A DNA stretch of 64,000 nucleotides from Octopus vulgaris. Taxonomy: Eukaryota. Location of the stretch: NCBI GenBank assembly GCA_951406725.2, contig OX597828.1:7378001-7442000 (forward strand). Reading direction: 5' to 3'. Below the pieces are notes generated by a model that saw nothing but the letters and a program-made list of their open reading frames with translations, made no database searches and was not told the origin of the DNA. Of the stretch, positions 1 through 59,652 are shown piece by piece (position 1 is the stretch's first letter; every line of letters begins with the position of its first letter). The translations under genes and the position numbers were made by a program.

Positions 1-224
1 AAAGTACTCATGATAATGCAAAGCGTTTCGTTGATAAAAAGCACAACATGGCGTTTCGAGGTAAACACATCGGTGTATATGTATTGACAGTAGTCTGTCA
101 TTTTATCTCTCTCTCTCCCTCTCTACCCCCCTTTATACACATGTACGTTTGAATGTTTGTGCGCTTGAGTGTATGCGCATGTACGTATGCATCGTATATG
201 CGGTTGAGAATGTGCTCAATATAT

Positions 225-14079: not shown

Positions 14080-14920
14080 GTTAGGGCGTCGGAGAAAATG
14101 CATCGCGTTATTTGTTCCGGGTCTTTACGTTCTAAGTTCAAATCCGACTAATATCAATTTCACCTTTTCATCGCTCTTGGGTCGATAAAGTTATATGGAA
14201 CCAAGAACTCAAGTTATGGGATCAATATAATCGGCTAATCCTTATATCCAAATTTCTGACTCTTTGCCCATTTCAGAAATTAAGGGCAATGGCCTGTAAA
14301 AGCGTTAGAGCGTTGGAGAAAACGCTTTGCATTATTTATTCGGCTTTAAGGTGTTGAGCTGGCAGAGTCATTAGCACACCGAAATAAATGCTTAGCGGCC
14401 TTTCTTCCGACTCTTTACGTCCTGTGTTCAAATTACAACGAGGTCAACTTGGCATATCATCTTTTCGGGGTCGATAAAATAAGTATCAGTTAAGCATTAG
14501 GATCCCTGCAATCATCTAACCCAACCCCCTAAAATTGCTGGGCTTGTGCCAAAATTCGAAGCCATTACTCATACCGGCTAAAGGTTCTGAGATGGCAGAA
14601 TCGTTAGCGCGTCGGACAAAATGCTCAAAAGCATTTCGTCCGTCTTCATGTTCCAATTTCAAATTCCGCCGAGCTCGACTTTGTCTTTTATCCTTTCTGG
14701 GTCGATAAAATACCAGTCGAGTATTGGAGTCGATGTTATCGACTAGCACCATTTCCCCAAAATTCTGGTCTTGTGCCTAGGAGTATTTGTTCCGGCTATC
14801 TAAGTTCTGAGTTCAAACAACACCTGGTTGAACTTTGCCTTTCATTCTTTCGAGATTGCTAAAAGAAAGTAACAGTGAAGTCAAGGACTGTATTCAGTAT
14901 GATTGACTAATCCCATCCTC
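14080..14920 (+). mobile_element. Cluster of old, diverged family D SINE copies (about 4 units)
   Basis: Repeated GTTCAAAT..CTTTCATC.TTTCGGGGTCGATAAAA cores with the older tail CCCCAAAATTGCTGG.CTTGTGCC. Confidence 0.75.
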
Positions 14921-17900
14921 GTGATATCTGTCCTGGTATCAGTTTAATAAATTACTATTTAACTGAAAATAAAGTTAATACGTGCAAATAGGCCTCCTGT
15001 GAAAACAACTGTTTAGTCAAATGGAAAAAACAATGTCCTTTTTGAAGTGCGTTAAGCTGCTCTATTGTTATCTCAGACTTACTTAGGTAGGTAACCTCTT
15101 GTCGCCAACTTACTGACTTAGTTCGATGGCTCTTATTTATGATGGTGACCAATTTATTGTAATATACCGCTGGCATTCTTTCATCGATGATTCCCATGAG
15201 AAAGGTGGTGCAATATGTGAAGAACTTTGAACCTGCCGTGATATTGAATTCTATAGACACAACATGAGTTTAGTAACTAACGTCATGATTTAAAATTGTT
15301 TCCATAATGCCAGTTAAGTGTGTTCTTGTCTTCTTGTCGACTTCATCACGAGTGCAGTGGACAAGCTGGTTGTCAAAACATTGCATCGCTTATCTTTCGC
15401 TTTCTCTAACGATTCAGTTTTAAAATATTAACAATTTCTTTCTTTTTGTTTTAACTATTTTGATTAAACAGAAATAATACTAACTACTTCTATACTCTAT
15501 CTACACCTTGGTGCTATAATTCATTGCTTGTGTTTTATTATTTTAGTTACCAATACAAGGCAAGTACACCAAGTACCAATGCAGCTGAAAGGACAGAGCC
15601 ATTATATGGTCGTTCGACTTACTAGAAATAGCAACCAATCCGTTTTAAATCGTACTTTACAATCTTTAAACAGTAAATTAATTGAGTAATTAAGGCATCT
15701 GATGGGAGAAAAAAAACAACAACTTTGCGCTGTTTATTCGGGATCATTGAATTCCGCGTTCAAATCCCACCGAAAACAACATTGTGGGGTCGATAAATGA
15801 AATATTGATCTAGAGCGGTGAATAGCAGTTCCAGTTCCCTGGGCTCCGAGTCCAAATATCACTGTGGGCTGCTTGAGTAGTAGACTCAATCTAAACGCAT
15901 TTTAACACTATCACCCGGTCTTTAGCTGTGTTGAGTAGGGTTCAGTCTGTTTCAGTTATCATAACTGAGTCGGGACTCCCGTCTGGTCATACCTTCTTCC
16001 TTTCCTCCTGTCACTCATGAAGGCCCAGAGACGAGTCACAGTCTCATAAAGCGATAAAAAGTAAAAAGGAAGGCGCACTAAATTAGATACTCCTAGATAT
16101 GCACAAAAATTAGCATTGTTACAGTTTTAATGGAAGACAAATAAATTCCACTTAGAAGATAAGCTTGCGTCAAATTAAGCGTCATGGTCTTTTCGATATA
16201 TCTTTAAAGAATAACTTCATGAAATGAGGACAATAGAAATTTTTGTATACATTCATTCTGTTTCAAGGAAACCCTCGATTGGGCATTTACGTGGTGTATT
16301 CTTGTAGGATCCTTGATAGTGGGTCCACGTTTAGATATTGCAGACCACGTCAGCGGAACATGAATAACCCCAAATTAGCTGATCAATAAACATAAACTTC
16401 TCCAAAAAAAAAAAAAAAAAGAAAAAAGGATTCTTTTTTAATCTTTTATCTTTGAATTGTTTGACATTCAGCCATTACACCGTGACAATATTGGGCCACC
16501 GAACTGAAGAACTTTTTAGTCGAATGAATCGACCCCAGTTAGATGAATAATTATTTTTGGCAAGCAATAATAAATATGGTAAAAAAAAAACCCAACTATT
16601 GCAATAAAGGAAATAACTCAAATGAGCCGATGGCATGCTTTTAAGATGAACCAAGTACGTATGGATGTACAGAATGGACTTAGGCACTAATAAAGATGAA
16701 TTTTCTCCTTAAATATAAGAATTGTTTTACAATTATTTATAGACTGAAATTATCTCCCTCATCGTGAATTACAAATGAATACCACTCCTTCTCTCTCTCT
16801 CTACATCTCCTCCCTCTCTGTATGAGTGAGTGTTTGTCTTCTCCGACAAATGTTCAACTAATTGAGAATTTTTGCGCATGGCATTTAGCACGCAAGCACC
16901 TACATAATCTCAATCCATACCAATGGCTTATTTGAGCTATTTCCTTTAGTTCAATTTTATATTTATAGGCATATGTATACAATATCATTTATACCCTTTA
17001 TTCGTAAAGTGAGTGCTACATAGCTTTTGCAGGGCGTTGGGTTTATTTCAGTAAGTGTTATTAACGAAGGCATTCCTGAGGCACATTGGTTTCGTTAACA
17101 ATAAACCATATTGACATTTCCTGTGTTATTATGTTCTACAAAATTGTATGACCCATTTTCAGGGTGTATCTGTTAAGTATGGCATGCAAACGCCAAGTGT
17201 TCGGGTCAAAAAAAGAAAGAAAATATTTGGCATCAGCGTTTCTATTGTTTAGCCCAAGGTCAACCTGGTCGACGAGACTTATGGTTAATTGCTTTCCAGC
17301 CGTAAAAACCGCATTGTTTTTAACGGCATAGTGTATCTAGAACAACATTATCCAAAGTATCTCTCTTTGTTTTAAGATGATAGGGTCTAATTTGCGAGAG
17401 ATTTGACGTAGAAGCTCATCCGTTGGTTCGTTTTTGATATTCAGTCCTCCAATTTTCTTCCTTTCCTTCTAAGCTGTAATGGAAGATAATTTATCCCTCA
17501 AACTGTATCCTACATTGGACATGTGGTAGTCGTAGCAAATGAAAGGAACCGTCAGGATTCGAACACCTTTGGTCATAAATATATTCGATCTGTTCTGAAT
17601 TGGTAATAAACAACAACAAGAATAACAACATAAAGCTTATGTTCAGTGCCAATCTTTACCGAAAGAGATGTGATTAACAGCATATTACTATGACATAACA
17701 ATTCAGCGTTTAAAAGGTGTTTGGACAGATCTGATAATTCTTCTTCGTTTAAGTTTAGACAGAATCTATCAAACTTGTTGTTGATGTGGTTGGCACTATC
17801 CTCTTTATTTGTCTGTCAATAGCTAGGATTTCCTCCAGTGCCTACTGAAGTAATCCAAACTTGAGGGCCAATAATAGTACTGAAAATGTAACGTGGCATA

Positions 17901-20949: not shown

Positions 20950-22151
20950 CAATATCGTAAAAGAGGTTCGTTGCAGTTACCAATAGCATCAATAGTCGAA
21001 ATATATAAGTTGGGGAAGATACGGACGGTCATGATGCTGAGAGAATCGAAGGATATGGAAATCAGGCGTAACCCACCAGAGGTGAAAATAGCCAGGAAGT
21101 GGAAAGCAGAAGCAGAAACTGACAACATCTTGTCTTCTCTTATACACAGAGATATGGTGGGAGCAACGCAGAACCATCGGAAAGGATTTGGTTTTGGCGC
21201 AGATCAGTTCAGACCGTTTGCAAGCATGATGCAGTGTGAACGCAGATCTGTTGTTAGCAACAGCGTCAAAACAAGAGAAGCAGAGAGAAGAGGGCTTCAT
21301 TTGATCCGATGTGTTCATCAAGGTCAGATGACGAGATGGGAAGAACATGTTGAGAGGAAGATAAGTTGGGATGAGATGTGGAAGTGGACGACATCTCGGC
21401 TGAGTTTCCTGATTCGTTCATCTTATGATGTTTTGCCATCACCTACGAATCTAGTAAGATGGAACGTCTTAGAGAATGACATCTGCAAATGTGGAAAGGT
21501 CGGTACACTAAAACATATTCTTTCCAACTGTTCATTAGCATTGAACAGGTACACATGGAGGCACAACTTGGTCCTTAAGGTTATCTTCAATGCTATAAAG
21601 AACCAAATTCATCTCAACAACACTGAGGAAAAATCGTTAAAAGTACCATCAAGAGAGTTCATTACCTTCGTGCGATCAGGTCAGCAGATCCGTTTCAAGA
21701 AGAAGACCAAGAAACTTCCTGAGAAAAATGAAAAGTGGAACGGCTATTGGGAAGTAACTGCAGATTTACCTGGGTGCCAGATTTTCTTTCCCATCCCAGT
21801 TTCGAAAAAACCAGATATTTTGATGTGGTGTGAAAGAAAGAAAGTTGTAAATATAGTCGAACTAACGGTTACTCACGAAGATAATATGGACGCCGCTCGA
21901 GCTCGAAATTAAACCGTTATGAAAACCTCCTCGAGGAATGTGAAGACGCAGGCTGGAAAGCGGAACATTTTCCTATCGAAGTCGGATGTAGAGGGTTTGT
22001 AGGACACAGCGTGAGACGACTGTTGTTATCGTTAGGCCCAACTCATCGTAAAGTCAATACCACCATGACTGATATCCAATCTACAGTGGAGAAGGCTAGC
22101 CACTGGATTTGGTTAAAAAGAGACGATGAGCGATGGCTAGAAGTATATTGA
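20950..22151 (+). pseudogene. 5'-truncated RLE-type non-LTR retrotransposon (HERO-like): post-RT region, CCHC knuckle and restriction-like endonuclease
   Basis: ORF 20971-21912 has CKCGKVGTLKHILSNC, RYTWRHNLVL and KPDILMW..IVELTV.HE. After a 1-nt frameshift at ~21907 it continues LNRYENL..GWK..FPIEVGCRGF..EKASHWIWLKR to TGA at 22149-22151. Clade assignment is from recalled motifs. Confidence 0.85.
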
Positions 22152-23098: not shown

Positions 23099-23501
23099 AT
23101 ATATATATATATATAAGGCTTTCGCTCCACACACGCCAGCTCTGTTTTATTCGTCTCTATCAATCGAAAGATACCTGTTGTTATTTTGTTGTTGTTTGTA
23201 TTTGTATGTGTGTAACGTTTTCTCCGTTTTTATTTGTCTTTGTTGTCGTACACATTCGCTTACTTTCTCCCCAAATATTTAATGCTCTAAGCTTAGATTT
23301 TTGGGGCCAGCCAGATCTGATCAGCCTCAAGTGTAACAGGGCGATACTGTAAGAAAGATTTGGAAACTTGACTGACGAGAGATAACAGCGAAAGACCCGT
23401 CCTTGTTCTTCCTGTCCGTTTCTTTTTATTGTTTTTCCTGTCCGTCATTGTATCGTCTATCTGTCGTCTTCTGCATATTTTGTTCAATATTATATATGTA
23501 T

Positions 23502-23661
23502 GAGTGGCTGTGTGGTAGGTAGCTTGCTTACAAACCTCATGGTTCCGGGTTCAGTCCCACTGTGTGGCACCTTGGGCAAGTGTCTTCTACTATAGCCTCG
23601 GTCCGACCAAGGTCTTGTGAGTGGATTTGGTAGACGGAAACTGAAAGAAGCCCGTCGTATG

Positions 23662-23718
<57 letters not shown>

Positions 23719-23918
23719 TTGTGTGTCTGTATTTGTTCTCCCAACATCGCTTGACAACCGATGCTGGTGTGTTTACGTTCCCGTAAATTAGCAGTTCGGC
23801 AAAAGAGACTGATAGAATAAGTACTAGGCTTACAAAGAATAAATCCTGGTGTCGATTTGCTCGACTAAAGGCGGTGCTCCACCATGGCCACAGTCAAATG
23901 ACTGAAACAAGTAAAAGA
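23502..23918 (+). mobile_element. SINE family C, full length
   Basis: tRNA-like head TGGCTGTGTGGTA..GGTTCCGGGTTCAGTCCC, internal (TA)(TG)n, LINE-like tail. Confidence 0.9.
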
Positions 23919-24982
23919 GTCTTGGGGCCACTGATGTTTATAGTGGCCCTTTCAAACATGCCTTCAGTTGCTACGATGACCACCCTTGCTAGCTATGCAG
24001 ATGACACAAAAGTCTCTCACGCAATACAAAACCCTGAAAATATTGCGCATCTGCAACAGGAGTTGGATACAATATACAGGTGGGCTGAGGACAACAACAT
24101 GCAGTTTAATGCAGGTAAGTTCCAGGCCCTGCGCTACCGGCACACAAAGGTAAACGACGTGTAGACTGGATACACTGGCCCAGGAAGAATTGCAATCCCT
24201 GAGTCAAAATCAGTGCGTGACCTGGGCATTGACATGAGCAATGATGCATCTTTCCAAGTGCATATTGCTAATCTGGTGATAAAATGCAGACGGCTAGCTG
24301 GATGGATTCTCCGAACTTTCAGAACAAGAGAGAAGGAGACACTGATGGTCCTATGGAAAACATTCGTCCTCATCCGCTTGGGCTACTGCTCCCAACTGTG
24401 GTCACCACACAATATAAAACTAACAGCAGAACTCGAAGCAATTCAGAGAAGCTACACAAAGAAAATCGTCTCAATGCAAAATATCAGCTACTGGGAAAGA
24501 TTGAAGGTATTAAACCTCTTCTCCCTAGAGCGGAGGCGGGAGAGATATGCGGTGATATGCATCTGGAAAATCCTGGAGGGTCTTGTCCCAAACTTTGGCA
24601 TTCAAAGTTACCCTAACCGCAGAATGGGGCGCCACTGCATGGTGCCAAGGATTCCAAATCACCATCAAAATACAGGTCCAGATACTGCAACAGCTTGGGT
24701 TTCAGAGGACCACAGCTCTTTAACATCCTCCCTAAATGCCTAAGAGACTTACATGGTGTGGATGTGGGTTTCTTTAAAACTAAACTGGATCTCTTCTTGT
24801 CGGGAGTCCCAGATGAACCTACCTCACGACAGGAGACGCAGATGCGGGCAGCAGCATCGAACGCCCTTGTTGATCAAGTGCCACGTATCAGAGGTGGATT
24901 CACAAATTAGTGTAGCTCATTCAGCGGTGGTGCCCCAGCATGGCCGCGGCCTTCGGGCTAAAATATTTTTAAGGATTTAAGG

Positions 24983-28583: not shown

Positions 28584-29339
28584 GGTTTGCTGTGCTTGAA
28601 AAGATATGTCAAGCTAAATAAGAGCGTGGTTATCCTTGTATACAGTTTGTCCACTACATCCCTCTCCAGCAGACCCTTTCTTACCTTGCGGATTCGTGGC
28701 CGCTGGTGTCACGTAAAAGGCACCCGTACCGGTGCCGCGTAAATGCACCCGTGCCGGTGCTGCGTAAAAGCACCCAATACACTCTATAAATGGTTGGCAT
28801 CACAAAGGTCAACTAGCCGTAGAATCCATGCCAAAGGCGGCGAGCTGGCAGAAACGTTAGCACGCCGGGCGAAATGCGTAGCCTTATTTCGTCTGCTGCT
28901 ACATTCTAAGTTCAAATTCCGCCGAGGTCGACTTTGTCTTTCATCCTTTCGGGATCGATTAAATAAGTACCAGTTACGCACTGGGATCGATATAATCGAC
29001 TTAATCCGTTTGTCTGTCCTTGTTTGTCCTCTCCGTGTTTAGCCCCTTGTGGGTAGTAAAGAAATAGGTATTTCGTCAGCCGCTACTTTCTGAGCTCAAA
29101 TTCCGCCGAGGTCGTCTTTGCCTTTCATTCTTTCGGGGTCGATAAATTAAGTACCAGTTACGCACTGGGGTCGATGTAATCTTTGTCTGTCCTTGTTTGT
29201 CTCCTCTATGTTTAGCCTCTTGTGGGCAATAAAGAAATAAGAATCCATGCCAAAACAGGCACGGAGCCTGGCCAGCTCTTCAGCCGGTCAGCTTCTGTCG
29301 AACCGTCCAATCCATACCAGCATGAAAAACAGATGTTAA

Positions 29340-30641: not shown

Positions 30642-31122
30642 TTTCAAGTTTTGGTACAAAGCTTGCAATTTTGACGGAGGGAATAAACCGATTACATCGC
30701 CCCCTGTGTTCAACTGGTACTTGTTTTATCGACTCCCAAAAGATGCAACGTAAATTCGACCTCGGCGGAATTTCCACACTGAACGTGAATATGAACGAAA
30801 TACCTATTTCTTTACTACCCACAAGGGGCTAAACACAGAGAGGACAAACAAGGACAAACAAACGGATTAAGTCGATTATATCGACCCCAGTGCGTAACTG
30901 GTACATATTTAATATACCCTGAAAGGATGAAAACGCAGAGAGGACAAACAAACTGATTAAGTCGATTATATCGACTCCAGTGCGTAACTGGTACTTACTT
31001 AATTGACCCCGAAGGGATGAAAGGCAAAGTCGACTTCGGCGGAATTTGAACTCAGAACGTAACCGTAGATGAAATACCACTAAGCATTCTGTCCGTCATA
31101 CTAGTGATTCAACCAGATCGGT
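30637..31122 (-). mobile_element. Family D SINE array (old copy with younger units inside)
   Basis: Old-type tail at 30637-30680, junction GAAATAC|CTATTTC at ~30803, diverged head at 31070-31122. Confidence 0.8.
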
Positions 31123-31590: not shown

Positions 31591-34201
31591 TAATGCCTAC
31601 AAAACGAACATTTTGAGCATTCCCCTAGAACCCTTTTCAAACCGCAAAATATGAAAGGATTATCGATCTCAATATTTAGTTTATCAAGATCCGGAAGGAG
31701 GACCGTTCTCACAGTTCCACTGTTGAACACCCTCGGTGTGGGGCATTTTTAATGACACTTAAAAGAGAGAAAGTAAAGTGACTTCGACAGGATTTGAACT
31801 TAGAGCGTAGACAATAACAATAAATACTCGATTCAGTCCAACTATCTAACGACACTGCCAATTGGCCATGTGTGTATATATGTGTATGTGTTTTAGGCTT
31901 GTGTAAGAATATGCAGGATTTGAGCTCAAAGTGTAAAACGCCGAGGCAAAGACGCTGCCAAGCATTCAAATCGGAGATCCCACAAATTCTTATTCGCCGT
32001 CAATGGCAAATGCGATAACGATATATCCTAACCAGTGTTATACCTCGATATATATGAGATGGTTATTACATATCCTTCTCGTGTATATCGGGTATGTTCA
32101 GAATGACGTTGTAGAATAAAGATGTCATTGCAATTGATGTTAAAGGAATGACAGAATCACTAGAGCGTCGGACAAATCTCTTGCGGTATTTGTTCCGGCT
32201 ATGAAACTCTGTTGTAATATAACCTGGATTGGGTAAAAGTGCGTGCGGACAGGCGTGTGTGTGCGTGCGTGCGTGCGTTATTATGTTGTTGAGTCCTGAT
32301 CCGAAAGATCTGAAGATGCAATATATTTCAGCCTTGACTTCCCGTTCTTCTCGTTAGACGATCATATCTTAATCATTACGTTGTTCTATTTTCTTCGTTA
32401 GTGCCTTGTCATTTGAAGGAAATTTAGCTACTATTTCAAGCAGATTTTACATCGAAGCTCCATTATTAACTCCCGTGCGTTTGTGTGTTTGTGTGTGTGT
32501 GTTTGTGTGTGTGTGTGCAAGCGTGCGTGCATGTGTCATATGTATGTGCATGTGTATGCGTGTGTGTGTGTGCGCGCATTATCCTTTTGTCAGGAGGGAG
32601 GGTAATACTCATGACCTTTAGAGGTCATCCGAGTCAAATGTATGGGAGAAAAGTATCTTCAACCTGAAATTCTAGCCCGAATGCTTGCAACAGTGTGATG
32701 TCCGCTCAAGGTAATGTTAAATCATGCGGTCAGTTAAGTCAACAGTCTAGCCCCGCTTTGGTGCGATTTGAAACCAGAATACAAAGAGTTTGAAGATATG
32801 CTGTAAGACATCCGCCCCCAACGTTCTTACAGTTCCACCCTTGAACACCCTCGGTGTGGGGCATTTTTAATGACACTTAAAAGAGAGAAGGCAAAGTGAC
32901 TTCGACAGGATTTGAACTTAGAGCGTAGACAATAACAATAAATACCCGATTCAGTCCAACTGTCTAACGACACTACCAATTGTCCGTGTGTGTATATATA
33001 TATGTGTGTGTGGTTTAAGCTTATGTGTAAAAGTGATGTGGTATCTTATGTGTTTTGTGTGCGGGCATGCATTCCTAAATTTGAGCTTTGAGTCTGTACG
33101 TGTATATGTGTGTATGTTTGTATAAGTTTGAGTGTGTGTGATCGTGTATATGTAAATGTAGCTATGTTTATGACAAAATAAACTATGCATTTAAAATCAC
33201 ACACTAAGACAATCCTTACTGTTGGCGGTGGAGCCAGATAATGTCAATAATGAGGTCATGAACTCCGGTCAAAATTGTTCACTGTAACAGGACGTCACCA
33301 CAATAAAATAAATATTTAGGAATCTGTTGAGGAAGAAAGAAACAGGTCTTCTTTCCTTTTGTTGAAAGTTGGATAAATAGCCTCTAATTTCACCCGTACG
33401 CCTTGCTCAACTTATTTTATCAACTAAGGCAGCAGTTGCTGGAATGGTTGTAAGTATATTGAAGACTTGGAATATTACAAAAGCCTAAATACAGGTCGAA
33501 TATGCTGAGATAAAAAAAAAAAAAAAAGTGAATATAAATAAATTACAATGAACATACAGTATTATTGAACGAGTTATGTTGTTTATCAATATCTAGAACA
33601 ACTACGGGATATAACTCCAGGCATGTTTCTCCGTTAACGAAAATCATCAGAAGGAAAGTAGCGTGCCCGTAAAATAGCTAAGATGTTTGGAGACACATAA
33701 CTACATAAATACAGAGAAATGCATATTCACTGATGAATTCTTTACAAACTGAGTAATTCTGAAACATCGCACATAGTGATAAACGTGCGTATACACATTA
33801 ACACACTCACATATACTAACACATACACACAGAGGCACATATTCACATATACACACTCACAAACGATAGATAATATGCAAGTGCACTCACGAAAGTTTTT
33901 ATAACAAGGGGTATCGACATTTTGATCTGATATTATAAGCCCTAACATGCATACATACACACATACACACATACCTGCATACATACACACTCAAACATAT
34001 ATACATATCTATATATAATCGGAAGAGGATGCGTGGCGTTCAATCATACAATGATATAAATTATATATGCATATATGTTACAGAGAGAGTAAATTTACTA
34101 CTATCATGTTCTTAAGAATGAAATCAACCCCTCTGTCTATATAACTACTCTCTTTATAATGTTGGCAAACGAAATAGAGATAAGAATGTGCATTGTCTGT
34201 T

Positions 34202-34304: not shown

Positions 34305-34419
34305 AGTTAACAAGAATTGTATTGGCATTTATACATTTAGGCAGGTTTAAAGGGGTGGTGGTGGGGGACATTTTGGGGGTAGGCATAGCGCAAAAATATC
34401 ATACTTGGGGGAGTGGTCA

Positions 34420-36280: not shown

Positions 36281-36486
36281 ATGAGAATCTCCTTATTTAC
36301 CTAAAACTCTATTCTTCTATAAATTTTTTATTCTTTTATTTATTCTTTTATCTAATTTACCACTGACTCCTTGACCACTCCCCCAAGTATGATATTTTTG
36401 CGCTATGCCTACCCCCAAAAAGTCCCCCACCACCACCCCTTTAAACCTGCCTAAATGTATAAATGCCAATACAATTCTTGTTATCT

Positions 36487-39766: not shown

Positions 39767-39928
39767 AAAGCAGTAAAGCATTCCCTAATGGAGTGACACT
39801 ATACCTTTAACAGCGTGAAATATATTATTTCGATTTGAGAATACAAGCCGACAAGGGCAAAATCTTGAAGTCACAGCGAACTCAAAATAATTAATTGACA
39901 TATATCCATATACTGATAACTGTATATC

Positions 39929-40161
39929 TATTTCTTTACTACCCACAAGGAGCTAAACACAGAGGGGACAAATAAGGACAGACAAAAGGATTAGGTCGAT
40001 TAAATCGACCCCTGGTGCGTAACTGGTACTTAATTTATCGACCACGAGAGGATGAAAGGAAAAGTCGACCTCGGCGGAATTTGAACTCGGAACGTAACGA
40101 CAGACGAAATATGGCGACGCTTATGGCACGGCGTGATAACGTTTCTGCCAGCTCGCCGCCT
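39929..40161 (-). mobile_element. Family D SINE monomer
   Basis: 20-bp TSD TATACTGATAACTGTATATC at 39909-39928 and 40162-40181. Confidence 0.92.
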
Positions 40162-42257: not shown

Positions 42258-42601
42258 AATTTTGGTAAGAAGCTTGTTTCCCAACCACATTGTTCCGGTT
42301 TCAGCTCCACTGCGTGACACCTTGGTTGAATGTCTTCTAACTATAACACTGCAATCTTAGTACATTGAAAGATAGAGGCAATAGTTATGGTTGCATTGCC
42401 TGTGGTTATACGTCTGCTCAGTCTAGGCTAGTACTTTGCAACATTTTCTCACTTGCGGTATACTTGTATTCTTTTCAAAATTCGGCGGCACACCTGAAAT
42501 AAAAATATATCTAAAAGTATAGGGGACAAAAATATATATTCAGTTTACACAACGGCACACTTAGAATCGTTTTGTGGAACACAAGTGTGCCACAGCATAC
42601 C

Positions 42602-42833
42602 TATTTTGTTACTACTCACAAGGGGCTAAACACAGAGGGGACAAACAAGGATAGACACACGGAATAAGTCGATTACATCGACCCCAGTGCGTAGCTGGTA
42701 CTTAATTTATCGACCCCGAAATGATGAATAGCAAAGTCGACCCCGGCGGAATTTGAACTCAGAACGCAGCGGCGGACAAAAAAAAAACACAAAACATTTC
42801 GCCCGGCGTGCTAACGTTTCTGCCAGCTCGCCG
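42602..42833 (-). mobile_element. Family D SINE monomer nested in a probable hAT/Charlie-like terminus
   Basis: 8-bp TSD AGCATACC at 42594-42601 and 42835-42842. The flanks join as GTGTGCCACAGCATACCGATCGAGGAGCACTG. Confidence 0.8.
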
Positions 42834-43380
42834 TAGCATACCGATCGAGGAGCACTGGGCTAGGCTAATCTAGTACTCAATTAAGTACAATAACAACACA
42901 CATACATACACACACACGCATACATACACGCACGCACACACACACACGCATATATACACGCACACACACACACACACGCGCGCGCGGATACATACACGCA
43001 CGCACGCACACTTTCTACATACACTTAAAAAATATGCACAAACACATGCAAGCAAGTGCATGTCAGACTGCTTCATAAATATACATGTAGACGCATATGG
43101 ACATGTGTTTGTATGCATGTTTTTGTCTGTGATGTGTTTGTGATTGTATAGGTGTGTGTTTGTTAGTGGGCGTGTGCACATCATATATTAACAGGGGGAA
43201 ACAAGAGAGAGAGAGAGAGAGAGAGAAAGAGAAAGAGAAAGGGAGAGAGGGGGAGGAAGAGGGAGAGAGATACCAAGAGATTACTATTCTATATCTCATT
43301 CTATATACAGGTGTACACATGTATGTATGTGAGGGTGTATGTACATCTGTACAAGCATATATATATATACATATATATAC

Positions 43381-46300: not shown

Positions 46301-48660
46301 GTGTGCGCACGTGTACGTGCATCACGGTATGTATCTCTCCTCTTATTGTATTATATGTGTATATTGTGATACTGATAAATGGAAGTGTGAAATAGCTGTT
46401 ATGTATGATACAGCTGTGATGTCTCTTTATATTGTGGGATATCTCTATTGCGATTGTGTGTCTATAATATGATCTACTATGCGTGTATTGTTGATAATCG
46501 ATGTGGTACAAAAATATAACACGCGTTGGAAACTACGTCATTTTGTACGCTCCCTGTGCTGGAATTGTTTTTGTTTTAAGACTTGTGCATGTGTGTCTAT
46601 ATTGTAACCTCTTTCACCAAGGCTTTCGCTCAACAATACAAAATTAGCTTTCTAAAGATAAATATCAGTAGTTCTCAAATTATGCGTTATAAGGGACGTT
46701 ATGCACCTTAGACTTTTAAAAAAATCTATTACAGCTTTAGAAATCCATATTTATGAATTCATAGTTTTATTATATACAACAATGGTGGATACTTTTCCAA
46801 ATTTTTTATTTAAAAAATTTAAATTTAAAATAGTTATTTTTAATTGCCCTTGCGAAGTTCTACATGAATTTTTCATTTGACCTCCCTTGTGCCTCAATGT
46901 AAAAAATAAACAAAATGAGAATCATCATACGCTGTGGTCATTTGATCGACTAGAAATGGCGAACAAAGTCCCTCCAATTATATTCTATCGTCTTAAATCA
47001 GTCCGAAAACTTTGTAGTCTGATATATTTTAAACGTTGCAATGATCGCGACTGTAATGCTTTTTTTTTTCTCACAGGTTTGCTAAATCCTCTTGATCTTG
47101 GCTAAATCGCAACAATACTTTCTACTATGGACACAAATCCAACACTTTTCTAGGGAGGAGAAATGAATTACATCGATCCCAAAAGAATGAAAGGCAAAGT
47201 CGAGTTCAGCTTCCACCAAGGTCGACTTTACTTTTCCTCCTTTCAGGGTCGATAAAATATAAATACCATTTGAGCACTGGGGTCAATATAATCGACTTGC
47301 TCATCCTGCCTTGTGTCAAAATTTGAAATCAATAAGTATCACAGTTATTTTCTATCCTGTAGAAACATGATAATGTATGCCGATTGGCTGAGTCATCAGA
47401 GCGTTGGATCTTCTTTTCCAGCTCTCTGCACTCTGATTTCGAATCTTACCAAAGTCACCGTTTCCTCTCATTGCCGCAGTGTCGATAAACAAAGTGCCTA
47501 TCCAGGGGTACTGGATTTTCAGAAATTTTAGGGTGTCGATTGAACTCAAAAACTCCACCCAGGTGACGATGAGCAGGACTTATGAGTCGACCTTAGAAGC
47601 AACTCTGCTACATCCACAACTGGTCTGCATGAACAGGTAGGCCTACAACCGTTATGGATAAACGAGCGACGACTTGTTGAGACCTTCATCCAGCAACAGA
47701 ACAACAATGGCTGATTGAAAACGGATAGCTTATTAACAAAATTGTGCCGGTGTACCGGTTTCATTGTCATTTAGTCTCGGCCAACACTTTTCTAGGGAGG
47801 CACAAGGGAGGTCAATAAACTAGACTTATCAACGTTGTTCTAGCACTGGTCGTTTCATCCTTTATTTCAGCCATGATACATCTAGGACTACAGTATCCTT
47901 CTTTTCCATCTGAGGACAAATTGCTTGATATTTCTTGCAGGTCTAGTGACCTCGTACGGACAATATCATTGGCTCATGTATGGATGTGTAAGAATATGTG
48001 AGTGAGTAGGTAAGTGTGTGTTAAGTGTGTGTATGTGTTTACACAGCTGCCATCTGACAAAGTTTTAATTAATAAATGAGGGTTAAATATTCTCCGAAAC
48101 TCCCTCTCGCTATCTCTCTATAACTATCTTACTTCCCTCATTCCACCTTCTCTCTCTGTCTCTTTATTTTTGTCTTCACATCCGTCCGTTCCATCCTTCC
48201 GTTGCTATAATGTTATGTCCGATGACAAACAACATATTAAAAAGGTTTGTCATAGCAACAACACCCGAAATCACGTGATCTAGTCTGTCCACTAGATAAC
48301 TTGATGCACACATCATTCTTACCTGCTCAGGTAAACTAAATTGTCAATCATAAATATCAAATAGCTATTGCTATAGTTACTTATCGCACTAACAACCTAT
48401 GTTACTTACTTATTCATATAGGTACTTAGATACGCGTGTGCACACATGCATACATAAACGAATATACATACTCGTACATATAATCACACTCTACGTCAGT
48501 GAGAGAATGTATGCGCACACACACGCACACACACACATACATCTAACAATCATCCATTCATATACACAGCGTGGATCGATGTTTGTATGAGTATATCTGT
48601 ATACACAATGTATAAGGCTATATATATGTAAATATATATACGTATATATACATGAGCGCA

Positions 48661-51776: not shown

Positions 51777-52464
51777 TAAAGAACGATAAGTGTGTGTGTA
51801 TGTGTGCGTGAGCGCGTGCGCGTGAGCGCGTGCGCGTAAGTGTGTGTGTGTGTATACAGAGCAAGAGTGTCAAATGCGTTTGGTCAGGATATTGATAAAT
51901 TGTCACTTCCTATTTTTTATGTTGAGCATAACAGCGAACCTCCTCATATAATAAATAATGTTCTATATTTTATAGCGCACTGAGTTATATAACGTCTATC
52001 TTATAGTATCTTCACCCCTTTCAATGCCAGGTCCCTTTTAGAAATAGTGCATATCTCCTCAATCAATTTCTGATAATGTAATTGGCCGAGTCCCGTAACT
52101 CCTTTGATGTAAACCTCATTTTCGTGTGTTACAAATGATATTATTAAACATGCTTTTTAAGGTCTAAGTTCTGTCGTTATATATTCTATTCTCTAAGCAA
52201 TTCACAGAATTGCTTAGAAGTGTAACAGCTAGTTATTTGGAAGACAACAATCATTACCATTTCAATGGGCTTGAAGAAAACTATACGATTCCTTTAGAAG
52301 GTATCTGTCTGCCTAAACAAGCAATCTTAACGTCAGAAAAGTCGACCATACGAAATATAATTATTACTAAAGTTATTTTTGCTGAAGAACGAGACGACAA
52401 AATGATTCTACACAGTTTCGCAACTTACTGGAAGTACTTTCAGTCACTGGTTTAAAACTATTCT

Positions 52465-53245
52465 TTTTTTTTTATTACCCAAAAGGGGCTAAACATAGAG
52501 GGGAGAAACAAAGACAGACAAACAGATTAAGTCGATTACATCGACCCCAGTGCGTAACTGGTACTTTATTTATCGACCTCGAAAGGATGAAAGGCAAAGT
52601 CGACCTCGGCGGAATTTGAACTCAGAACGTAACGGCAGACGAAATACCTATTTCTTTACTACCCACAATGGACTAAACATTGAGGGGACAAACAAGGGCA
52701 GACAAACGGATGAAGTCGATTACATCGACCCCAGTGAGTAACTGGTACTTTATTTATCGACGCCGAAAGGATGAAAGGCAAAGTCGACCTCGGCGGAATT
52801 TGAACTCAGAACATAAAGTGAGACGAAATACCTATTTCTTTACCACCCACAAGGGGCTAAACATAGAGGGGACAAACAAGGACAGACAAACGGATGAAGT
52901 CGATTATATCGACCGCGGTGCGTAACTGGTACTTTATTTATCGACGCCGAAAGGATGAAAGGCAAAGTCGACCTTGGCGGAATTTGAACTCAGCACGTAG
53001 CGCCAGACGAAATACCTATTTCTTTACTACCCACAAGGGGCTAAACATAGAGGGAACAAATAAGGACAGACAAACGGATGAAGTCGATTATATCGACCCC
53101 AGTGAGTAACTGGTACTTAATTTATCGACCCCGAAAGGATGAAAGGCAAAGTCGACCACGGCGGAATTTGAACTCAGAACGTAACGGCAGACGAAATACA
53201 GCTACGCATTTCGCCCGGCATGCTAACGGTTCTGCCAGCTCACCC
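52465..53245 (-). mobile_element. Family D SINE tetramer (one headed unit plus three headless ~184-bp units)
   Basis: The junction GACGAAATAC|CTATTTCTTT occurs at ~52647, ~52831 and ~53015; head at 53195-53245. Confidence 0.92.
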
Positions 53246-53780
53246 TATCGGTCACAGTCTCTCGTTTAGTTTGGTAGTTATTTTATCGATCTCCTACCTA
53301 ATCTCTAAGTTACGCTTTTGATAGGGATGAATCTCTATACATAAAGAACCCCAGTAAACGTAAACATGTTGTTTCTATCCACCAAATTTCATTCGCATAG
53401 CACTTGTCATTCCAGGGCTAAAACAGAAGTGTGGGATATTAAAATCCATCCGATCAGGAATTAAGTGGTGCTGAAGCGATCTTATTACGCACAATGCCCT
53501 GCCATACATACATACATACATACATACATACATACATACATACAGACATGCATACATACATGCATAATCTATAAATACCTACGTACATACACACGCGTGT
53601 GTGTATGTGTGTACATGTATGTGTGTGTATATATACATATATTGACATACACATGATTACTCACGCCCAAAACTTCTACTGGGTACTTCTACATACATAC
53701 ATACATATATATATATATACAGTGTACATTTAAACACATAAGAGATGTCCATAACAGGACATCTGACTCGCTAGAAAGAT

Positions 53781-56830: not shown

Positions 56831-57306
56831 CACACATATACAAAATACATATATAACATTATATATATATATCTAATGAATACAATTAGGAAAGAAATAA
56901 CGAATAGATTCTATTTGAGATTGACATTCATTCAGTTATAGTTGAAAGCACTTGTCACATGTCAGAGTAGTCGATCACTAATTGGTTAATTTCAGTTACG
57001 TGCTCAACAACAACAACATCAACAAGAATGACACTTCTCAGCAAACCAGCTTCAACATTACTGGTATCCTTTTTTTTTTGTTTTTATCTAATTATGTCGT
57101 TAACAACAACTCGAGATGTGGTCAATGTTTTAAAGCTACAAATTCTTTGTGTCTTGTGGTATATATAAACGCTGTTGATGCTGTTGTTGTCGTCTTGTTG
57201 ATTGGTTGGTTGATTGGTTGGCTGGTTAGTCGGCTGGCTGTTGTTTGTAGCAGCAGTGGCAGTATTATTCTGATTCTTTGTCTTTGTTGTTCTTTGTTGC
57301 TATTGG

Positions 57307-57536
57307 GAGCTGGCAGAAACGTTAGCACGCCGGGCGAAATCCGTAGCCGTAGTATTTCGTCTGCCGTTATGTTCGGAGTTCAAATTCCGCCGAGGTCCAC
57401 TTTGCCTTTCATACTTTCGGGGTCGATTTAAATAAGTACCAGTTACGCACTGGGGTCTATGTAATCGACTTAATCCCTTTGTCTGTCCTTGTTTGTTCCC
57501 TCTGCGTTTAGCCCCTTGTGGGTAGTAAAGAAATAG
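57307..57536 (+). mobile_element. Family D SINE monomer
   Basis: GAGCTGGCAGAAACGTTAGCACG..GTAGTAAAGAAATAG. Confidence 0.9.
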
Positions 57537-57817
57537 GATATTGCTCTTCTTGTTCATTGACGTCAGAATCAAGACCACGATGATAATTCCCTCCAAAACT
57601 GTTCCTCACCACGATTCTCAAGACAATTCATTTAGAGTATGATGATGATAAGGAGGAGGATATTATGATGATGTCAACAACTGCTAACACGGAACCACAG
57701 CAGTAATAGTTCCGTGGAAAGAGACATGGGAGACCCTGTGAGACCTTTGACAGCAGGTTGCTATCCGTGCTCACGGAATTAACCCAAGCAAGACCGAGAG
57801 CCTTGAGAAGTAAAATG

Positions 57818-57890
<73 letters not shown>

Positions 57891-58259
57891 TACCAGGCTG
57901 TGGCTCACATGGTTTCTGATCTTAACTGATTGGAAGCGTTGTCTTGTACATGTTTTGTCTTAGTGTAAAATATGGGCTACAGCAAGTATTCTGCTCAATG
58001 CCACAGATTTGCTTGTCAGTTGTTTGACCATAGCCAGTTGAGCATGTTCCTTGGTGGCTGACAATATGTGTATCTCTGATCACAAGCAGAAGTAGTGGGG
58101 GGGGCAGCATGGCCATGTGTTGAGAGGAGTTATTAGGGGTTTGAATAGTTCACCTCTGGAAACATGGGTGTTTCGTTCATCATCCTTAAGCATTCTTTAT
58201 TCAGGGTCCTTTGAGCGGGATTGGCTAACTATTCTGCCAGGTCACTATCTTTTATTTGT

Positions 58260-58960
58260 TTTTAGTTTATGCACAAGGCCAGCAGTTATGAGAAAAGACT
58301 ATCAGTCAATGGTTCATAAGTACTTGACAGGTAATTCATTTTATCGATCACGCAGGGATGAAAGGTAAGATTAAAGTTTAAAACATAGACAGCTGGAAAA
58401 ATACCTATTTCTTCACTACCCACAATGGGCCAAACAAGGACAGACAAACGGATTAAGTCGATTATATCGACCCCAGTGCGTAACTGGTACTTAATTTATC
58501 GACCCCTAAAGGATGAAAAGCAAAGTCGACCTCAGCGGAATTTGAACTCAGAACGTATCGGCGGACGAAATACCTATTTCTTTATTACCCACAAGGGACT
58601 AAACATAGAGGGAACAAACAAGGACAGAGAAACGGATTAAGTCGATTACATCGACACCAGTGCGTAACTGGTACTTATTTAATCGACTCTGAAAGGATGA
58701 ACGGCAAAGTGACCTCGGCGGAATTTGAACTCAGAACGTAACGGCAGACGAAATACCGCTAAGCATTTCGCCCGGAGTGCTAACGTTTCTGCCAGCACGT
58801 CGCCTTTATAATTGTAATTTATGGTAGAGATTTGAAACCTCCACTTGCATGTTATGTTACTACTTCTAAATACCCTTACCTACTGGGCCACCAAAGCAGC
58901 AACACAACTGGAAAAATACCGCTGAGTATTTTATCCGATGCTCGAAAGATCCTGGCAAAT
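58260..58960 (-). mobile_element. Old family D SINE split by a younger D dimer (58406-58806)
   Basis: 13-bp direct repeat CTGGAAAAATACC at 58393-58405 and 58908-58920. The old body lies to the left and the old head to the right. Confidence 0.8.
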
Positions 58961-59149: not shown

Positions 59150-59560
59150 AATGATAATAATGCTTTCAAATTTTGACACAAGGTCAGCAAGTTCATGTGA
59201 GGGCACTAATTGATTACATCGACCTCAGTGCTCAACTGGTTCTTAATTAATCAATCCCGAAAGGATGAAAGGTTAAGTCGAGCTCGGCGGAATTTGAACT
59301 CAAAATGTAAAGACGGACGAAATGTTACTATGCATTTTGTCCGGCGTACTTAACGACTCTGCCACCTCATCACCTTAAAAGACATGATAATAATCCTTTC
59401 CACTCTAGGCACAAGACCTGAAATTTCGTGGGAGGAGGTAAATTGATTATATTGACCCCAGTGCGGAACTGGTACTTATTTCATCGACCCGAAAGGACGA
59501 AAGGCAAAATCGACCTCGGTGGTATTTGAACATAAAGACGGACGAAATGCCGCTCACCAA
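59150..59560 (-). mobile_element. Two older family D SINE copies
   Basis: Core ATCGACCCGAAAGGA.GAAAGG.AAA.TCGA.CTCGG with the old-type tail. Confidence 0.75.
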
Positions 59561-59652
59561 CTCAAAAACAATGATAATAATAATACTCCTTTCTACTATA
59601 GGCACTAGACCTATAGTAGAGTAGATATTAAAGTTGTGGTCGTCTTCTTTTT

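Follow-up and report, generated by a model that had tools for sequence, protein, structure and literature searches.

At positions 52465..53245 of a 64-kb window (the whole stretch of DNA that was analysed, 64,000 nucleotides), four units of about 184 bp follow a single SINE head, and the joint between successive units recurs base for base elsewhere in the window. The locus raises the question of whether this joint was made once, in a dimeric master copy, and then spread, or whether it marks a site at which copies were inserted repeatedly. A sequence-only reading of the window had named four candidate routes: (a) repeated self-insertion with an in-register 5′ join, (b) template jumping by the reverse transcriptase, (c) circular RNA copied by a rolling circle, and (d) one ancestral dimer combined with unequal exchange.

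A SINE Family with Young and Old Subfamilies

The window is animal-like and rich in microsatellites. Its SINE family is interspersed and non-coding, with many copies of 100 to 600 bp; 45 profile-hit rows were obtained in 64 kb, about 20 of them substantial, and depth is very high in three contig sets. The young group lies 3.8-9.2% from its own majority sequence, and older groups have other tails; young and old subfamilies are distinguished at 33 diagnostic sites, for which solo copies alone were used. TSDs of variable length (15, 19-20, 8, and 13 bp) are present at four of the seven young loci tested. The head is tRNA-like, with A- and B-box-like words recognized by eye; ARAGORN returned no tRNA and Rfam no match. 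A long head hairpin is predicted (z −1.55 and −2.47), and the base at which units are joined, herein the head site, lies at the boundary of its loop and 3′ arm. Folding at the junction (z 0.75) and in the tails gave no significant hairpin, a small predicted tail stem-loop included. Within the window no tail-only match to a LINE was found, and neither of the two LINE fragments present has the tail of this SINE. The solo young copies are as follows:

39928..40161, minus strand: 19-20-bp TSD beginning with G at the tail
42600..42835, minus strand: 8-bp TSD beginning with GGTAT at the tail
57307..57537, plus strand: ends in GG, no clear TSD; reference for the contig alignment
2065..2290, minus strand: has the other type of tail; its 3′ end runs into (AT)n and is lost there

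Octopus SINEs have a tRNA-like head and a conserved central block and reside in a microsatellite-rich genome; the octopus CORE-SINEs OR1 and OR2 were reportedly described by Ohshima and Okada in 1994 (cited in PMC4824008 and PMC4758252). The family studied here resembles octopus SINEs in head, central block, and genome and may be an OR-type CORE-SINE. A motif search in two supplements of PMC4824008 gave no match. The divergence of the young copies is close to the distance (0.065) at which the accessible text of PMC13282606 places a SINE burst in O. vulgaris.

Two head-loop variants occur, one at 2242, 29797, 58757, and 58920 and the other at 28885, 53200, and 57345. One variant keeps GG before TATTT; the other lacks it and could be a poorer target. 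Both are frequent in other assemblies.

One Junction Sequence at Four Loci

The junction AAATAG/GTATTT corresponds to the 12-mer AAATAGGTATTT, which has seven exact matches in the 64-kb window:

29062-73, plus strand
30798, 52642, 52826, 53010, 58399, and 58568, all minus strand

When one mismatch is allowed, the window holds these seven and one unrelated one-mismatch match, against a mean of 1.20 in shuffled sequence; none of 100 shuffles reached eight. The recurrence of the junction at the seven positions first noted is therefore borne out. The description of these positions as independent loci does not hold, as the seven junctions fall into four loci.

A Tetramer and a Dimer of Young Units

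The array of four units behind one head proved to be correctly described and lies on the minus strand; TRF reports 4.0 copies with a period of 184 and 91% matches over 52467-53199. Its parts are as follows:

53200..53244, minus strand: tRNA-like head of the tetramer, with an A-box-like word and the 5′ arm of the long head hairpin; no tRNA by ARAGORN
53016..53199, minus strand: unit 1, with body and tail of the young type, probably the unit that was inserted
52832..53015, minus strand: unit 2, headless, 5′ rare allele as in unit 4 and 3′ allele as in unit 1
52648..52831, minus strand: unit 3, headless, a mosaic like unit 2
52458..52647, minus strand: unit 4, at the end of the array, probably the body of the original host, with different alleles in its tail

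No TSD was found around the array. Pairwise differences among units 1-3 (7.1-8.7%) are smaller than the summed divergence of each pair from the majority sequence (10.3-13.6%), which points to a shared history. At alignment column 146, on the 5′ side, a rare allele is common to units 2, 3, and 4, and at column 191, on the 3′ side, another is common to units 1, 2, and 3; units 2 and 3 also have the tail of unit 1. Neither allele is found in the other units of the window (8-9 compared). The column-191 change corresponds to A>C at 57472 of the solo reference copy, and the sole place with A>C at 2% or more in each contig set is 57413, so the column-191 allele is local. If the two units of a dimer recombined unequally, a hybrid of the kind seen in units 2 and 3 is what one would expect; the match to this prediction has flaws, since units 2 and 3 disagree at columns 165 and 180 and no single clean crossover explains them. 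The array may have begun as a dimer of units 1 and 4, with local unequal exchange later raising the number of units to four. A test of the four units as a single clade fell short of rejection (p-AU 0.079), and the tree does not establish one. The first ∼40 nt of unit 3 (52790-52831) score 0.0 bits, neither young nor old, and are possibly a remnant of an old host.

A dimer at 29 kb was confirmed to be bounded by a TSD, as previously claimed:

28836..29239, plus strand: dimer, with head and unit to 29067 and a headless unit of a different allele lineage from 29068
28821-28835 and 29240-29254: the two copies of its 15-bp TSD

The second units of this dimer and of that at 58.6 kb have different tail alleles, each of which is also found in solo copies. 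The word “satellite,” applied earlier to these arrays, is an overstatement: the longest has four units, and the units of the tetramer are 7-11% apart.

Old-Subfamily Hosts Are Split at the Junction

Five of the seven junctions lead into young headless units. Those at 30803 and 58404 had been read in the same way; there, the sequence after the junction is instead an old-subfamily body with an old tail (tail log-odds for young versus old of −50.6 and −46.0 bits, respectively), and at both the head of the old host lies upstream of the young insert. The 31-kb locus comprises:

31078..31119, minus strand: head of the old-subfamily host, three of three diagnostic sites old, −7.0 bits
30804..31077, minus strand: body and tail of a young copy, fitted in register into this host, +13.2, +8.0, and +88.1 bits
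30640..30803, minus strand: old host body and old tail, resuming at the junction, −3.5, −9.1, and −50.6 bits

The young piece starts in register at the head site and leaves no scar. A 90-bp internal tandem duplication (30851-31022) lies inside the young insert. The 58.6-kb locus comprises:

58908..58960, minus strand: head of the old host, ending in the upstream TSD copy (58920-58908)
58806..58907, minus strand: ∼100 bp of additional sequence on the 5′ side within the TSD, found once in the window
58406..58805, minus strand: young head, unit, and headless unit in the old host (junction 58574/58573)
58250..58405, minus strand: downstream TSD copy (58405-58393, holding a T5 run) and old host body

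Here, the young insert is flanked by an exact 13-bp TSD, GGTATTTTTCCAG, the first base of which is the junction. In the extra 5′ sequence (58806-58907, minus strand), visual inspection shows words like an A box and a B box, and there are two hairpins; this sequence may derive from the 5′ flank of the source locus, read from a polymerase III promoter further upstream. A probable older example lies at 14.3 kb:

14296..14923, plus strand: host head (14296-14347) and host body (from 14782)
14348-14565 and 14583-14781, plus strand: two full-length old SINEs in this host, with different tails

Position 14782 had been noted as an old-subfamily analogue of the junction; with moderate support, it is better described as the resumed body of an older host that holds two nested full-length SINEs. 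The locus carries a diverged duplication at the same head site, and scoring does not resolve the subfamily of the host head. Clean old-host cases number two, with this one probable. All host-head calls rest on the profile and diagnostic-site tests; a pairwise-score test of the same heads was mixed, being old at 58.9 kb, young-leaning at 14.3 kb, and young-leaning at 31 kb over a stretch that includes young bases. A TSD over long range was considered for the 17 bp that are identical at 14784 and 32187; this reading was rejected, as the copies are in the wrong order and a sibling at 14109 has the motif. At 32149-32203 (plus strand), an old head ends 17 nt past the same head site with no downstream body in the window; it is possibly another insertion at the head site.

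Old hosts split at one base, with an exact TSD at the junction in one of them, indicate that the junction is a DNA insertion site within SINE heads and that it has been reused. Of the eight young loci, two have their insertion at this base of an old SINE; were insertion uniform, with ∼20 such sites (a rough count) in 128,000 strand positions, P would be about 7e-7. The outer 3′ end lies at non-SINE sites in the other six, unlike the R2/RLE-type non-LTR pattern in which nearly all insertions share one target; targeting is a bias and not a rule.

The Seven Post-Junction Pieces Do Not Form a Single Lineage

Phylogenetic analysis used a tree of 23 rows and 185 columns, with the partial 31-kb 5′ piece and the partial old 47.2-kb copy omitted. 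One clade for all seven post-junction pieces was rejected (p-AU 4.5e-7); the right-hand monomers are not the one lineage expected of a dimeric master. One clade for the five young headless units, in a tree of the 13 young units in which no branch was starred, was not rejected (p-AU 0.155). Descent of every headless unit from a single clade, which the sequence-only reading had set against repeated events, is accordingly excluded for the seven pieces and stands unrejected for the young five. Together with the distinct tails of the dimers' second units, the rejection means that a single dimeric master is insufficient.

Insertion at the Head Site and Its Alternatives

We consider it probable that the junction is an insertion site in the SINE head, likely reached through pairing of the RNA 3′ end with nicked DNA. 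Young copies are found at the same base (5′-..GC/GGTATTT) whether the family member that receives them is old or young. Route (a), in which self-insertion recurs and the 5′ end joins in register, draws its support from the order of parts at 31 kb and from the TSD at the same base at 58.6 kb. The solo tails that reach AAATA continue with G, GGTAT, and GG (n = 3), the first two of which open their TSDs; the window frequencies of these continuations are 0.18, 7e-4, and 0.03, and such continuations are what 3′-pairing-guided priming predicts. The word GGTATTT occurs 27 times in the window, seven times at the junctions, and 6 of the other 20 occurrences are SINE head sites, so longer pairing would favor SINE heads. 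The old hosts are the decisive evidence; they were missed in the sequence-only reading, as was the overlap of solo-copy 3′ ends with their targets.

In the proposed mechanism, the RNA tail, likely continuing GGUAUUU, would pair with nicked target DNA and prime the copy (TPRT). The new cDNA would anneal to the homologous host head, or the doubled head would collapse later, to give head, unit, and headless unit; loci bearing the junction would act as sources, so that the junction would reproduce itself, and whole dimers may be copied too. Both steps resemble those of LINEs: for L1, as few as four matching nucleotides suffice for priming (Monot et al. 2013, PMC3649969), and annealing is often how the 5′ ends of LINEs are joined (Yamaguchi et al. 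2014, PMC4245944). The likeness lies in 3′ RNA-target complementarity and 5′ cDNA annealing, both of which we infer here; the LINE cases in the available portions of those papers involve poly(A)/T-tracts, 5′ microhomologies, and dispersed sites, whereas the site here is fixed and lies in the element's own family. By this analogy the in-register 5′ join fits the annealing pathway of LINEs, and later collapse of a doubled head would look alike. Judged by sequence, the GGTATT of the tail could be a native LINE-derived end or could have been captured from the first junction, as the data fit both. The anatomy of the loci is solid; clean cases are few, and pairing is a putative step.

A more speculative extension, which we regard as possible and would not favor, is that the SINE is self-homing: its RNA would carry its own target, site preference would be set by RNA-DNA pairing instead of by an endonuclease, and old copies would be turned into source genes. 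Landing in register in a dead relative would rebuild a promoter from the host head. The host T-run at the site (58.4 kb; old-type contig consensus) would act as a polymerase III terminator and would end the RNA exactly within the targeting sequence. Such a cycle, if true, would seed SINE-derived satellites with fixed unit boundaries.

The main rival to pairing-guided insertion is a preference of the partner LINE endonuclease, or of chromatin or local structure (the head hairpin or RNA polymerase III factor binding), for the head site, with RNA-DNA pairing incidental and the later steps unchanged. We judge it unlikely, while recognizing that the site does lie at the loop/3′-arm boundary of the long head hairpin (z −1.55 and −2.47), that the site was also used, by different tails, in the probable older event at 14.3 kb, and that the window contains an RLE-like LINE fragment at 20950-22150 (motif by eye, no Pfam match). 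Against these points, most insertions are at unrelated sites, the length over which solo targets agree with the expected RNA continuation varies, and the old tails end in (T)ATT, which is also able to pair with the site. The present sequences do not separate pairing from endonuclease preference. Less likely still, as the explanation of the junction, is that one or a few dimeric masters made it once and that dimer retrotransposition and unequal exchange spread it. TSD-bounded young dimers at 29 and 58.6 kb, the unrejected clade of young headless units, the lack of a T4 run in 9 of 13 young units (making polymerase III read-through possible), and the local expansion seen in the tetramer are all in keeping with dimeric masters; yet these cannot produce old-subfamily bodies past the junction with their own heads upstream, and they sit badly with the different tails of the two dimers' second units and with the rejected clade of all seven pieces. 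As the sole cause, a dimeric master is refuted by the old-host loci, unless these are products of gene conversion. Route (d) fails as the only origin and retains two parts: dimeric sources may have contributed to some dimers, so that a master probably contributes without being sufficient, and unequal exchange seems to have built the tetramer.

In the template-jump model, reverse transcriptase moves from SINE RNA cleaved in the head loop to the 3′ end of another SINE RNA, and SINE RNAs with 5′ ends at GUAUUUCG are expected. It would yield TSD-bounded dimers of two lineages, as at 29 kb, and the junction does fall at a hairpin loop; however, it offers no account of a TSD that starts at the site or of an old head upstream. 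Template jumping is not needed and cannot split hosts in DNA, so route (b) survives as a possibility for young-young dimers, and as the general explanation we find it very improbable. A circular RNA or DNA of ∼184 nt, copied by a rolling circle or integrated by homologous recombination in the manner of retrozymes, would suit the constant 184-bp period and the identical junction, and short tandem monomers of similar size are known from metazoan non-LTR retrozymes. Rfam, ribozymes included, gave no match at E ≤ 10 in 52400-53300 or at gathering score in the whole window, neighboring units carry different family-wide alleles, and integration would place the switch between young and old anywhere, whereas in both clean cases it lies within 10 nt of the junction. 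Lacking a hammerhead or other Rfam match, and having SINE anatomy and mixed ancestry, these arrays differ from retrozymes; an undescribed ribozyme in the units is possible, and route (c), which these results leave unsupported, is the least credible of the four alternatives weighed here.

The Junction Recurs in Other Assemblies

All locus-level cases come from the one 64-kb window. To look beyond it, contigs of three public runs (X1, X14, and X7; X14 is only guessed to be RNA) were aligned to the solo copy at 57230-57700. The counts are of sequence variants and not of copies, cover X1 in part only, and do not imply transcription. Among the 15 best of 176 joints, the exact joint from 57536 to 57352, from the tail back to the head site, is present in 19, 22, and 19 contigs of X1, X14, and X7, respectively, and in 46, 33, and 35 when four near-identical rows are added. 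The other main tail joint leads to a full head (21, 4, and 18 contigs); in X1 and X7, such full-length tail-to-head joints are about as common as the exact joint, so insertion at the self site is not the sole nested geometry. In X14, 182 contigs extend beyond the tail, and their consensus is the junction (agreement 0.69). Among 12 of 491 between-letter rows, the sequence in two picks up again precisely in register despite diverged host letters (16 and 21 letters), and that in a third runs on into the old-type CATTTCG, as would be expected if the host supplied the sequence after the tail. A raw-read run (X22) was uninformative: 18 of 12,895,792 records aligned, most less than 90% alike and one with the joint. 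Searches for the SINE motifs in viral, metagenome (two scans), and prokaryote genome collections gave no match.

Relation to Known SINE-Derived Arrays

Tandem arrays derived from SINEs are known from squamate reptiles (SINE-derived satellites, sSat; Vassetzky et al. 2023, PMC10702118) and from the HCD SINEs of the bivalve Scapharca broughtonii, which form TSD-(SINE)n-TSD arrays (Martelossi et al. 2024, PMC11481361); the available text of both proposes unequal recombination as the origin. Like sSat, the arrays described here consist of tandem partial-SINE units with a longer terminal unit that runs to the SINE end, and they share recurrent unit boundaries and short, heterogeneous loci. Unlike sSat, their unit includes the whole tail and they reach at most four units; long homogenized arrays are not seen in the 64-kb window, where units are 7.1-10.9% apart. 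A defined target base, a TSD at the junction, and an old-subfamily host do not appear in the accessible sSat text, and all three are present here. The bivalve arrays, also built from tRNA-derived SINEs of a mollusc, likewise have one complete head, repeats head-truncated at a fixed position, and a single TSD; their internal units are tail-truncated as well, whereas the internal tails here are complete, and the mechanism discussed in the accessible bivalve text is unequal recombination, in contrast to self-insertion into other subfamilies.

Arrays of this shape, in squamates and a bivalve, and both LINE chemical steps are already known. That such arrays are seeded by a SINE inserting again and again at a single base within its own head, in different subfamilies, is apparently undescribed, and an earlier description is possible: a literature search found no paper on self-insertion or same-site nesting, with most subscription journals outside its range. 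How satellites start and why unit boundaries recur are left open in the available sSat text (PMC10702118), and a fixed self-target would be a concrete first step from interspersed SINE to tandem array. Such a target would further provide a natural example of target bias guided by RNA in a retroelement that is non-autonomous, and a way in which chimeras of subfamilies arise (“mosaic” SINE evolution). Repeat annotation and dating call for caution, since a nested in-register copy combines a head of one age with a body of another.

Other Repeats in the Window

Several further rearrangements involve old SINEs. A tail-to-head run of old SINEs (old tail, head-deleted copy, and full copy) lies at 59158-59620 on the minus strand. 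A fragment of an old SINE is contained in a local direct duplication (31700-31900 and 32820-33020, minus strand), and a stretch at 34324 (plus strand) is duplicated in inverted orientation at 36467 (minus strand). At 47171-47335, the 5′ part of an old SINE is replaced by an inverted copy of its own central block.

The LINE fragment at 20950-22150 (plus strand) is C-terminal, with zinc-knuckle-like and restriction-like endonuclease motifs seen by eye and no Pfam match. A copy of a second SINE family (23500-23920, plus strand) is directly followed by a 5′-truncated CR1/L2-like LINE (to 24975; RVT_1, E 2e-5), the 3′ end of which resembles the second-family SINE tail by eye; the pair (23500-24975) is likely a SINE-LINE partnership combined with an insertion at the SINE tail. 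A protein search with the reverse-transcriptase fragment of this LINE (24165-24740) gave 109 matches, the three named ones being crustacean, with 45-49% identity.
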